Positions 31,492 through 53,840 of a stretch of 64,000 bases of DNA are shown here, piece by piece. Both the position numbers and the translations under genes were made by a program. The DNA comes from Escherichia coli (GTDB taxonomy: Bacteria; Pseudomonadota; Gammaproteobacteria; Enterobacterales; Enterobacteriaceae). Location: NCBI RefSeq assembly GCF_003334815.1, contig NZ_QOWO01000005.1. One strand, written 5' to 3'. Position 1 is the first letter of the stretch, and each line of letters begins with the position of its first letter. The notes below the pieces were generated by a model. The model worked only from the letters and a program-made list of their open reading frames with translations. It was not told the origin of the DNA and did no database searches.

Positions 31492-31790
31492 CGAGATTGT
31501 TGTCGGATGCGACGCTATGCGTCTTATCCGACCTACAGTTCAGTTCACCCCGTAGGCCTGATAAGTCGCGTCAGCGGCGCATCAGGCATCGGTTGTCGGA
31601 TGCGACGCTATGCGTCTTATCCGACCTACAGTTCAGTGCACCCCGTAGGCCTGATAAGTCACGTCAGCGGCGCATCAGGCATCGGTTGTCGGATGCGACG
31701 CCATCCGTCTTATCCGACCTACAGTTCAGTGCACCTCGTAGGCCTGATAAGTCGCGTCAGCGACGCATCAGGCATCGGCTGTCGAATACA
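31492..31790. repeat. Tandem BIME array: three ~93-bp units each carrying two REPs, filling the prpB-prpC intergenic region
   Basis: Unit tgtcggatgcgacgctatgcgtcttatccgacctacagttcagtgcaccccgtaggcctgataagtcgcgtcagcggcgcatcaggcatcggt repeated at about 31501, 31594 and 31687 with a few substitutions. Confidence 0.85.
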
Positions 31791-31805: not shown

Positions 31806-32696
31806 TTATTTCACCTGGCTACGGGCAAACAGGTTGTCGAGCTTCTCTTCGTACTGGTAGTAGTTGATGCTTTCGTACAGCTCGTTGCGGGTCTGCATGG
31901 TGTCGATGACGCTTTTCTGCGTGCCTTCCTGGCGCAGGACGTTGTAGACATGTTCAGCGGCGCGGTTCATGGCGCGGAACGCTGAAAGTGGGTACAGCGC
32001 CATTGCGACATGGGCGCTGCGTAATTCGTCGGTGGTAAACAGCGGCGTGGCACCAAATTCGGTGATGTTGGCGAGGATCGGCACCTGCACCGCATCGGCA
32101 AACTGGCGGTACATGGCGAGTTCGGTAATCGCCTCCGGGAACAACATCTCGGCACCCGCTTCAACATAGGCCTGCGCACGCTCGATCGCCGCATCCAGCC
32201 CCTCTACCGCCAGAGCATCGGTGCGCGCCATGATCACAAAATCAGGATCGGTTTTCGCATCCACCGCCGCGCGGATCCGATCCACCATCTCTTCTTTCGA
32301 GACGATCGCTTTATTCGGACGATGACCGCAGCGTTTCGCACCAACCTGATCTTCAATATGCAATCCTGCCGCACCGGCTTTAATCATCGATTTCACGGTG
32401 CGCGCCACGTTAAAGGCCGAAGAACCAAAACCGATATCCGCATCCACCAGCAGCGGCAGCGAACAAACGTCGGTGATACGGCGAATGTCGGTCAGCACAT
32501 CATCAAGGGTAGAAATACCGAGATCGGGCAGCCCCAGCGAACCTGCCGCCACGCCACCGCCAGAAAGATAAATTGCCTGATATCCGGCACGCTGCGCCAA
32601 CAGCGCATGATTAGCGTTGATGGTGCCAACAATCTGCAATGGATTTTCTTTAGTCAGTGCAGCGCGAAACGCTTTACCTGGAGAGTGTAGAGACAT
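31806..32696 (-). CDS. prpB: 2-methylisocitrate lyase
   Basis: 296-aa [54 protein letters not shown]... (PEP-mutase/ICL family). Confidence 0.95.
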
Positions 32697-32743
32697 AGCC
32701 CATCCTTTGTTATCAACTTGTTATTTGCGTTGATAAAGACAAA

Positions 32744-32759
32744 GCAAGGGGTGTGCCAC
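32744..32759 (-). promoter_or_regulatory. Sigma-54 (-24/-12) promoter of prpBCDE
   Basis: Minus strand reads TGGCACaccccTTGC (GG-N10-GC spacing) 48-63 bp upstream of the prpB ATG; prpBCDE is known to be sigma-54/PrpR dependent. Confidence 0.7.
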
Positions 32760-32831
32760 AATTGCCTTAATAAAATTAAATGTTTAATTTCAATTTGTTA
32801 GAGATAAAGTCATGAACTAATCCGCAAATAT

Positions 32832-32891
32832 GCGTTTCAGTTAACGTTTCAGGCAATGTTTCACCGCGTTTCATTGCAACAATTATGAAAC
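32832..32891. promoter_or_regulatory. Candidate PrpR enhancer (UAS): four direct GTTTCA repeats plus an inverted copy
   Basis: gcGTTTCAgttaacGTTTCAggcaatGTTTCAccgcGTTTCAttgcaacaattaTGAAACa between prpR and the sigma-54 promoter. Confidence 0.45.
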
Positions 32892-32934
32892 AAGACTAAA
32901 CCCAATATTCGGTTTCTTAACTTTGCGGTGCGCT

Positions 32935-34521
32935 ATGGCACATCCACCACGGCTTAATGACGACAAACCGGTTATCTGGACGGTATCTGTAACGCGCCTG
33001 TTCGAGCTGTTTCGCGATATCAGCCTCGAGTTTGATCACCTGGCGAACATTACCCCTATTCAGCTTGGCTTTGAAAAAGCAGTGACCTACATCCGCAAGA
33101 AACTGGCAAACGAACGCTGTGACGCCATCATCGCGGCTGGCTCTAACGGCGCGTACCTGAAAAGCCGCCTGTCAGTGCCAGTTATTTTGATTAAACCGAG
33201 CGGCTACGATGTGTTACAGGCACTGGCAAAAGCCGGAAAACTCACCTCTTCTATCGGCGTTGTCACCTATCAGGAAACCATTCCAGCGCTGGTGGCGTTT
33301 CAAAAAACCTTTAATTTGCGCCTCGACCAACGTAGCTACATTACCGAGGAAGACGCACGCGGGCAGATTAACGAGCTAAAAGCTAACGGCACCGAAGCGG
33401 TGGTCGGCGCAGGGCTGATTACCGATTTGGCAGAAGAAGCCGGAATGACCGGAATTTTTATCTATTCCGCCGCCACCGTGCGCCAGGCGTTCAGCGATGC
33501 GCTGGATATGACGCGCATGTCGTTACGCCATAACACTCACGATGCCACCCGCAACGCCCTGCGTACTCGTTACGTGCTGGGCGATATGCTCGGTCAATCA
33601 CCACAGATGGAACAAGTACGGCAGACTATTTTGCTGTATGCCCGCTCCAGTGCGGCGGTGTTGATTGAGGGGGAAACGGGGACGGGCAAAGAGCTGGCGG
33701 CCCAGGCGATTCATCGGGAATATTTTGCCCGCCACGATGCGCGACAGGGCAAAAAGTCGCATCCGTTTGTTGCCGTCAACTGCGGGGCGATTGCCGAATC
33801 GCTGCTGGAAGCAGAACTGTTTGGCTATGAGGAAGGGGCGTTTACCGGCTCGCGACGCGGAGGTCGCGCCGGGCTGTTCGAAATTGCCCACGGCGGTACG
33901 CTGTTTCTGGATGAGATTGGCGAAATGCCGCTACCTTTGCAGACCCGGCTGCTGCGGGTGCTGGAAGAAAAAGAGGTCACCCGCGTCGGCGGGCATCAGC
34001 CTGTTCCGGTAGATGTACGGGTCATTAGCGCCACTCACTGCAATCTGGAAGAAGATATGCAGCAAGGACGTTTTCGCCGTGATCTGTTTTATCGGCTGAG
34101 TATTTTGCGTCTGCAATTGCCACCACTGCGCGAGCGGGTGGCGGATATTCTTCCGCTGGCGGAAAGCTTTTTGAAAGTGTCTCTGGCGGCGCTCTCCGCC
34201 CCATTTTCTGCTGCATTACGCCAGGGGTTACAGGCAAGTGAAACTGTGCTGCTGCACTACGACTGGCCAGGCAATATTCGTGAACTGCGCAATATGATGG
34301 AACGACTGGCGCTGTTTTTAAGTGTGGAACCGACGCCGGATTTAACGCCGCAGTTTATGCAACTGCTACTGCCGGAACTGGCGCGCGAGTCGGCGAAAAC
34401 TCCCGCTCCACGCTTACTGACACCACAACAGGCACTGGAGAAATTTAATGGCGATAAAACAGCAGCGGCGAATTATTTAGGCATCAGCCGGACGACGTTC
34501 TGGCGGCGGCTGAAAAGCTGA
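32935..34521 (+). CDS. prpR: Sigma-54-dependent activator of propionate catabolism
   Basis: 528-aa product [15 protein letters not shown]... with AAA+ sigma-54 interaction domain ([14 protein letters not shown]) and C-terminal HTH; start trimmed from 32923. Confidence 0.93.
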
Positions 34522-52367: not shown

Positions 52368-53840
52368 ATGTCCCGAATGGCAGAACAGCAGCTTTATATA
52401 CATGGTGGTTATACCTCCGCCACCAGCGGTCGCACCTTCGAGACCATTAACCCGGCCAACGGTAACGTGCTGGCGACCGTGCAGGCCGCCGGGCGCGAGG
52501 ATGTCGATCGCGCCGTGAAAAGCGCCCAGCAGGGGCAAAAAATCTGGGCGTCGATGACCGCCATGGAGCGCTCGCGTATTCTGCGTCGGGCCGTTGATAT
52601 TCTGCGTGAACGCAATGACGAACTCGCAAAACTGGAAACCCTCGACACCGGAAAAGCATATTCGGAAACCTCAACCGTCGATATCGTTACCGGTGCGGAC
52701 GTGCTGGAGTACTACGCCGGGCTGATCCCGGCGCTGGAAGGCAGCCAGATCCCGTTGCGTGAAACGTCCTTTGTGTATACCCGCCGCGAACCGCTGGGCG
52801 TAGTGGCAGGGATTGGCGCATGGAACTACCCGATCCAGATTGCCCTGTGGAAATCCGCCCCGGCGCTGGCGGCAGGCAACGCAATGATTTTCAAACCGAG
52901 CGAAGTTACCCCGCTTACCGCGTTAAAGCTGGCTGAAATTTACAGCGAAGCGGGCCTGCCGGACGGCGTATTTAACGTGTTGCCGGGCGTGGGCGCGGAG
53001 ACCGGGCAATATCTGACCGAGCATCCGGGCATTGCCAAAGTGTCATTTACCGGCGGTGTCGCCAGCGGCAAAAAAGTGATGGCTAACTCGGCGGCCTCTT
53101 CCCTGAAAGAAGTGACCATGGAACTGGGCGGTAAATCACCGCTGATCGTTTTCGATGATGCGGATCTCGATCTCGCCGCCGATATCGCCATGATGGCAAA
53201 CTTCTTCAGCTCCGGTCAGGTGTGTACCAATGGCACCCGCGTCTTCGTTCCGGCGAAATGCAAAGCCGCATTTGAGCAGAAAATTCTGGCGCGCGTTGAG
53301 CGCATTCGCGCGGGCGACGTTTTCGATCCGCAAACTAACTTCGGCCCGCTGGTCAGCTTCCCGCATCGCGATAACGTGCTGCGCTATATCGCCAAAGGCA
53401 AAGAGGAAGGCGCGCGCGTACTGTGCGGCGGCGATGTACTGAAAGGCGATGGCTTCGATAACGGCGCATGGGTTGCACCGACAGTGTTCACCGATTGCAG
53501 CGACGATATGACCATCGTGCGTGAAGAGATCTTCGGGCCAGTGATGTCCATTCTGACCTACGAGTCGGAAGACGAAGTCATTCGCCGCGCTAACGATACC
53601 GACTACGGCCTGGCGGCGGGCATCGTGACAGCGGACCTGAACCGCGCGCATCGCGTCATTCATCAGCTGGAAGCGGGTATTTGCTGGATCAACACCTGGG
53701 GCGAATCCCCGGCAGAGATGCCCGTTGGCGGCTACAAACACTCCGGCATTGGTCGCGAGAACGGCGTGATGACGCTCCAGAGTTACACCCAGGTGAAGTC
53801 CATCCAGGTTGAGATGGCTAAATTCCAGTCCATATTCTAA
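52368..53840 (+). CDS. betB: Betaine aldehyde dehydrogenase
   Basis: 490-aa ALDH-family ORF (catalytic Cys motif GQVCTNG, ELGGKSP). Confidence 0.95.

Follow-up and report, generated by a model that had tools for sequence, protein, structure and literature searches.

A candidate PrpR enhancer, an IHF-like site and a sigma-54 promoter in the divergent prpR-prpBCDE control region of Escherichia coli

Between the divergently transcribed genes prpR and prpB of Escherichia coli lie a cluster of GTTTCA hexamers and, nearer to prpB, a sequence resembling a sigma-54 promoter. The question raised by this locus is whether the two belong to one enhancer-dependent control region in which PrpR acts on prpB from a distance, or whether the hexamers serve some other regulator, or none at all. 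We examined it in a 64,000-nucleotide stretch of E. coli DNA, referred to below as the window. A 401-bp query across the region matched 5220 of 5426 complete E. coli genomes, and a 161-bp query over the promoter and the array was 100% identical to a derivative of MG1655. RefSeq annotation of an identical locus places prpE-prpD-prpC-prpB on one strand and prpR on the other, and thus bears out the gene assignment made in a preliminary description of this DNA. The spacer between prpB and prpR (positions 32697-32934, 238 bp) has a G+C content of 36% as against 52% for the whole window, and an Rfam search of this spacer returned no RNA family. The features discussed below are collected in Table 1. 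Taken together, they make it very probable that this is the divergent prpR-prpBCDE control region, operating through the PrpR, IHF and sigma-54 mechanism that we propose.

Table 1. Features of the prpB-prpR region in window coordinates; positions relative to the transcription start refer to the predicted start of prpB
Feature	Position	Strand	Basis or remark
prpB CDS (methylisocitrate lyase; first gene of prpBCDE)	31806..32696	-	ORF list; RefSeq annotation of identical locus
Predicted prpB transcription start	~32732	-	Inferred from promoter geometry
Sigma-54 promoter core TGGCAC-N5-TTGC, TGGCACACCCCTTGC	32758->32744	- (prpB strand)	Exact consensus match
-24 element	32758-32753	-	Part of promoter core
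-12 element	32747-32744	-	Part of promoter core
IHF-like site TTTCAATTTGTTA	32788..32800	+	Consensus scan, one mismatch to WATCAANNNNTTR; centre ~-62
Candidate PrpR half-site H1, cGTTTCA	32834..32839	+	Centre ~-104
Candidate PrpR half-site H2, cGTTTCA	32846..32851	+	Centre ~-116; invariant in 13 enterics (columns C149-A155)
Candidate PrpR half-site H3, tGTTTCA	32858..32863	+	Centre ~-128
Candidate PrpR half-site H4, cGTTTCA	32868..32873	+	Centre ~-138
Candidate degenerate PrpR half-site H5, TGCAAC on plus strand	32875..32880	-	Centre ~-145; alignment
Candidate PrpR half-site H6, TGAAAC on plus strand	32886..32891	-	Centre ~-156; invariant in 13 enterics (columns T190-A196)
prpR (sigma-54 enhancer-binding protein)	32935..34521	+	Annotation; Pfam domains of near-identical proteins; motifs

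Several observations concern the wider locus. With positions 32600-33000 as the query, the region was absent from 206 of the 5426 complete genomes; at least one such genome, RM8082, retained the prpB side alone, and nine copies of the region were found on records labelled as plasmids. In E. coli W224N the annotation marks prpR as a pseudogene interrupted by an internal stop, and the promoter and half-site array are intact. The prpB-prpC spacer is filled by three tandem copies of a 93-bp unit (31499-31787) which match the Rfam family naRNA4 (RF02564), the best copy, at 31555-31626, scoring 63.1 bits relative to a gathering score of 59.5; the copy number of these repeats varies among E. coli strains (PMC7360682).

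The promoter core presents GG and GC doublets ten bases apart on the prpB strand upstream of prpB, its -12 C being 48 bp upstream of the ATG at 32696, a spacing called appropriate in the preliminary description; the motif named there is the right one, with coordinates (32759 to 32745) that were off by one base. TGGCAC-N5-TTGC has a single exact match within the window, which by itself is not significant, as 0.25 matches were expected and 22 of 100 shuffles contained at least one; with one mismatch allowed there were 8 matches relative to 7.3 expected. It is thus location, conservation and published data that argue for a promoter. An alignment of 13 enteric species showed no variation in the -24/-12 element. 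In sigma-54 ChIP-seq of E. coli MG1655, the first intergenic peak listed (OS01; Bonocora 2015, Table 1) lies upstream of prpB with the motif GTGGCACACCCCTTGCT (PMC4591121), a 17-mer identical to window positions 32759->32743, and genomic SELEX with RpoN holoenzyme gave a peak in the prpB-prpR spacer, at 347864 (PMC8743547). The homologous Salmonella site, TGGCATAGCCTTTGCTTT, binds sigma-54, and Salmonella prpBCDE expression is 45-fold sigma-54-dependent (PMC3844500); dependence of prpBCDE on rpoN (ntrA) was demonstrated genetically in Salmonella, according to the work cited in PMC4987338, PMC5566544 and PMC3844500. From the promoter geometry we infer a transcription start at about 32732, which would put the GC doublet at -13/-12 and the GG doublet at -25/-24; this position agrees with the distance of 36 to prpB listed in Table 1 of PMC4591121. 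These data support the reading of 32758->32744 as the prpB sigma-54 promoter.

Upstream of this promoter, four direct GTTTCA copies, with spacings of 12, 12 and 10 bp, and one inverted copy (TGAAAC) lie within 58 bp, the number and orientations given in the preliminary description, and the imperfect palindrome noted there can be written as GTTTCAT-N10-ATGAAAC, with 7-nt arms that are 100% complementary. The whole window contains 39 copies of the hexamer on both strands, and five copies in 58 bp correspond to a Poisson probability of about 3e-10 per position; among 200 first-order Markov simulations of 64 kb the largest 60-bp cluster held three copies, and this occurred once. Alignment added a sixth element. 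The E. coli TGCAAC aligned with TGAAAC in Entomohabitans, Pseudocitrobacter and Shimwellia, and because the three most distant genera read TTGAAACA-N4-TGAAACA, it is best described as a degenerate sixth half-site, H5, 11 bp from H6. H1 to H4 point toward prpR and H5 and H6 point the opposite way, the spacing from H4 to H5 being 7 bp. A pyrimidine precedes the hexamer in each of the six E. coli copies and in more than 90% of copies across loci. With centres from -104 to -156 the six lie at least 70 bp upstream of the promoter, as enhancer sites do.

The hexamer was also looked for beside prpR outside E. coli. An initial search with the PrpR protein returned almost solely E. coli sequences, whereas a search of a representative library reached distant relatives. 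We aligned the PrpR_N N-terminal domains of diverse relatives and then scanned one genome per species, which gave 80 loci spanning Escherichia, Citrobacter, Salmonella, Pluralibacter, Pseudocitrobacter, Entomohabitans, Shimwellia, many Oxalobacteraceae, and Gallionella; prpB was divergent from prpR in 60 of 81 loci. In an unbiased count of all hexamers, comparing the spacers of 48 non-redundant loci with the rest of each locus, GTTTCA/TGAAAC was the most enriched, with 206 copies observed and 6.8 expected (30-fold), and every one of the 48 loci had at least two copies. The layout was kept as well, with GTTTCA nearer to prpB and TGAAAC nearer to prpR; spacings between copies of one orientation peaked at 11-13 bp (41 of 67, counting those up to 40 bp), and a central convergent pair lay 6-9 bp apart, start to start, in 13 cases. 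Counts of exact half-sites ranged from about 2 to 7 among taxa. Among the loci scanned, GTTTCA-N6-GTTTCA was restricted to the spacer just upstream of prpR. The motif adjoined prpR genes whose products were just 42-52% identical, including a long form containing a PAS domain, and also adjoined prpR where the divergent gene was a distant prpB paralogue. Janthinobacterium prpR genes (13 loci) had no divergent prpB within 3 kb; the upstream regions of three of them had at most two exact TGAAAC copies, one of the three having none, and the other two had TGCAAC variants at a spacing of about 11-12 bp.

Within the enteric bacteria the alignment of 13 species contained four invariant blocks: the -12/-24 core; the C, A and T positions of the IHF-like site; CGTTTCA at E. 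coli 32845-32851, containing H2; and TTG-AACA-N4-TGAAACA at 32874-32892. Among Escherichia sequences, substitutions were concentrated in the AT-rich tract and in a GGCAAT sequence and avoided the IHF-like block and the half-sites, except for H3 in E. albertii, which reads ATTTCA. Most Escherichia otherwise have H3, as do the more distant enterics, and in Citrobacter and Salmonella it is degenerate. H1 aligned with GTGTCA or GCTTCA in most other enteric genera, the outlying genera being more degenerate.

Comparison with the Salmonella prp enhancer gave the hexamer an identity. The Salmonella PrpR enhancer consensus, as given in Table 1 of PMC4987338, which cites Palacios and Escalante-Semerena (2004), is CGTTTCATGAAACG, and (C)GTTTCA is its half-site. 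A consensus scan of the E. coli spacer for the full 14-bp palindrome found no complete copy; the best matches, CGTTTCAGTTAACG and CGTTTCAGGCAATG, had 3 of 14 positions mismatched, with the left half intact and the right half degenerate. A perfect palindrome, aaCGTTTCATGAAACg, was present in most Citrobacter and in one of the two Salmonella subspecies sampled (arizonae), and S. diarizonae and C. amalonaticus had one mismatch in its right half. H2 corresponds to the left half of this Salmonella/Citrobacter palindrome, and in Escherichia GGCAAT replaces the right half. Escherichia has exact GTTTCA copies 12 bp to either side of H2 (H1 and H3), where Citrobacter and Salmonella have GTGTCA and GTTCCT-like sequences. 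An alternative description of the E. coli array, as a series of 18-bp palindromic dimer sites that overlap one another (AACGTTTCA/TGAAACGTT), was also considered. With centres 12 bp apart, neighbouring sites would share 6 bp, and no palindromic partner exists for the third copy (1 of 9 positions); half-sites therefore describe the array better. Elsewhere in the window, CGTTGCGTGAAACG at 52753-52766 differs from the Salmonella PrpR palindrome at two positions; nothing else in the window, the prp spacer included, comes as close.

That the hexamer equals the half-site of the Salmonella consensus and ranks first among hexamers in 48 loci supports the array as the PrpR enhancer, for which it had been put forward as a candidate; the individual E. 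coli half-sites are putative PrpR contacts.

The AT-rich stretch that had been described between the repeats and the promoter is present, and consensus scanning located two plus-strand IHF matches of one mismatch within it, at 32774-32786 and 32788-32800. The latter aligned with IHF-like sites of other enterics. It was kept in eight Escherichia sequences in which the flanks varied, and persisted in E. whittamii despite different flanking sequence. Across genera, an IHF match of at most one mismatch on this same strand lay between promoter and array in 41 of the 48 loci, 17 of them perfect, where about 1.5 were expected; most of these matches, and all 17 perfect ones, were 29-64 bp from the -24 element, and only six of the 48 loci had a match on the other strand. 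The spacer thus offers both a consensus match and an AT-rich flank between enhancer and promoter, as looping by IHF would require. [quoted passage not shown]

The prpB leader, on the 3' side of the -12 element, has features of its own (32706-32741). It contains a perfect IHF consensus, TATCAACTTGTTA, at 32711-32723 and an 8-bp inverted repeat, TTATCAAC/GTTGATAA, at 32710-32717 and 32729-32736. A leader RNA hairpin formed by this repeat was rejected because the predicted start, at about 32732, falls inside the arm nearer to the promoter. The leader block TTGTTATCAACTTGTTA is nearly unchanged in Escherichia and Citrobacter and progressively degenerate in more distant enteric genera; it recurs 77 bp upstream, as a 78% direct repeat, in the IHF-like block at 32783-32800.

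The product of the adjoining prpR has the properties expected of the cognate activator. Near-identical PrpR proteins contain PF06506, PF00158, PF25601 and PF02954, an architecture of a PrpR_N sensor domain, an AAA+ sigma-54-interaction domain and a C-terminal Fis-type helix-turn-helix; the Walker A motif is GETGTGKE, and a GAFTGA-type loop is present. The loop that contacts sigma-54 reads GAFTGS, relative to the canonical GAFTGA (window 33859-33876, residues 309-314). The recognition helix, LGISRTT(F/L)WR(R/K)L, is nearly invariant across PrpR orthologues, which fits an unchanged DNA target.

Earlier summaries describe prp as needing PrpR, sigma-54 and IHF, as being activated by 2-methylcitrate and as depending on CRP (PMC5566544, PMC10101121). 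We propose that sigma-54 RNA polymerase would be held in a closed complex on TGGCAC-N5-TTGC, and that the Fis-type helix-turn-helix at the C-terminus of PrpR would engage the YGTTTCA half-sites, which lie 104-156 bp upstream of the start. Upon activation by 2-methylcitrate, PrpR would assemble into an ATPase oligomer, and IHF bound at about -62 would bend the DNA so that the oligomer could touch sigma-54 and open the promoter. This arrangement is the standard enhancer-IHF-promoter geometry.

Other explanations of the array must be weighed against the PrpR enhancer. Short repeats are common in AT-rich DNA, and the cluster might be a functionless low-complexity product of chance or slippage in such a spacer; we regard this as scarcely conceivable, since none of the 200 simulations reached five copies, and the 30-fold enrichment over 48 independent loci, the columns invariant in 13 enterics and the conserved orientation pattern effectively refute a chance origin. 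A more serious proposal is that part of the array is a cAMP-CRP site activating both divergent promoters, with the repeats serving mainly catabolite control and not PrpR binding. Lists derived from RegulonDB give one CRP site for prpR-prpBCDE, and a CRP site is described, in the account of Lee et al. (2005) given by PMC9452892, as overlapping the PrpR operator, its mutation having abolished PrpR regulation. However, loss of PrpR control upon mutation would be expected equally well of a PrpR site, and the best spacer matches to the CRP consensus TGTGA-N6-TCACA had just 6 of 10 positions; our scan did not locate the reported CRP site. The hexamer, moreover, equals the PrpR enhancer half-site and tracks prpR into the Oxalobacteraceae and Gallionella. 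CRP control as the main purpose of the repeats is therefore doubtful, if still a possibility to be taken seriously; an overlapping CRP site as an extra layer, compatible with the PrpR enhancer and not replacing it, is plausible.

The prpR-side end of the array has also been assigned to PhoB. In that interpretation PhoB would repress prpR during phosphate starvation by binding a Pho box, TTGCAACAATTATGAAAC, at 32874-32891. Yang et al. (2012) reported a PhoB ChIP-chip peak and the exact TTGCAACAATTATGAAAC motif, along with a gel shift and, for prpR, a log2 change of -1.9 (PMC3465305). This reported Pho box is exactly H5 plus H6, two direct repeats at 11 bp that resemble Pho-box geometry. Both repeats, however, are accounted for as PrpR half-sites that are kept in genera distant from E. 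coli, and by our own count they agree only weakly with the Pho-box consensus (3 of 7 and 4 of 7 positions). The gel shifts used 5-35 uM PhoB (PMC3465305), and a later PhoB ChIP-seq paper makes no mention of prpR in its main text and regards the peaks found in the ChIP-chip study alone as for the most part not genuine (PMC10294691). Control of prpR by PhoB thus appears unlikely. A different possibility is that the array is mainly an operator through which PrpR regulates its own divergent promoter. Other enhancer-binding proteins have sites that overlap their own promoters and provide a precedent for autoregulation; here H6 is just 43 bp from the prpR ATG, so that the prpR promoter must overlap or abut the array, and Escherichia sequences hardly vary from 32823 as far as the prpR ATG. 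Against this, a consensus scan of 32600-33050 for sigma-70 promoters and terminators detected none, and thus no prpR promoter of this type, and reviews describe the prpR promoter as unresponsive to propionate and controlled by CRP (PMC5566544). Moreover, autoregulation would come on top of enhancer function and would not replace it. As the principal function of the array it seems a somewhat improbable choice; as a second role, exerted on prpR's own promoter, it is possible.

Returning to the PrpR enhancer, we considered how the protein might read it. One model is that PrpR reads single YGTTTCA half-sites, and not palindromic dimer sites of rigid geometry, and that the convergent, phased array serves as a template for the six helix-turn-helix domains of one hexamer. 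We offer this model tentatively and think it more likely wrong than right; the half-site number of about 2 to 7 among taxa does not support a strict rule of six sites per hexamer. If the half-site reading were true, Escherichia would represent a lineage-specific rebuild in which direct repeats replaced the Salmonella-type palindrome; this could contribute to the reported threefold weaker output in E. coli, and CRP or PhoB could compete for individual half-sites.

The element itself is ordinary, conserved and already known from Salmonella genetics and biochemistry and from sigma-54 mapping in E. coli. The present analysis maps the E. coli region base by base, adds a sixth half-site, identifies the loss of the palindrome as specific to Escherichia and shows how broadly the elements are conserved. 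These findings leave current understanding of prp unchallenged, and their practical value is modest: prpR-PprpB is a widely used propionate-inducible expression system and biosensor, and a base-level map should aid its trimming and re-engineering and explains why changes made to a "CRP site" or a "Pho box" are likely to hit PrpR binding. The PrpR recognition element appears stable from enterics to Oxalobacteraceae, and YGTTTCA arrays beside a PrpR_N-type activator provide a simple signature for annotating such regulons.

The closest known system is the Salmonella prpR-prpBCDE control region, reportedly the subject of studies by Horswill and Escalante-Semerena in 1997 and by Palacios and Escalante-Semerena in 2000 and 2004. 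It shares with E. coli the divergent gene order, the sigma-54 -24/-12 element, an IHF-like site between promoter and enhancer, half-sites H2, H4, H5 and H6, and the block GTTTCA-TTGCAACA-N4-TGAAAC, and the PrpR proteins are about 80% identical; the distance from promoter to array in E. coli is shorter, by 37 bp relative to Salmonella and by about 24 bp relative to Citrobacter. The Oxalobacteraceae and Gallionella (Collimonas, Herbaspirillum, Undibacterium and others) have in common with E. coli the YGTTTCA half-site, the convergent array beside prpR and the sigma-54 core, and their spacers carry a perfect IHF consensus on the same strand as the E. coli site. They differ in having more TGAAAC copies on the prpR side and, in many cases, a single additional GTTTCA (often GTTTCATG) situated between the -12 element and the divergent gene (eight loci), where E. 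coli has none. More broadly, the region resembles promoters controlled by NtrC, NorR and XylR, in which a closed complex sits on GG-N10-GC, activator sites lie more than 70 bp upstream with IHF between, and the activator combines an AAA+ domain and a GAFTGA-type loop with a Fis-type helix-turn-helix. It departs from them in two respects: the PrpR sensor is a PrpR_N domain responding to 2-methylcitrate and not a receiver domain, and whereas the textbook cases have two or three inverted-repeat dimer sites, in prp the conserved units are half-sites of 6-7 bp, arranged as direct repeats phased at 11-13 bp, which converge on a centre of variable spacing (6-9 bp).
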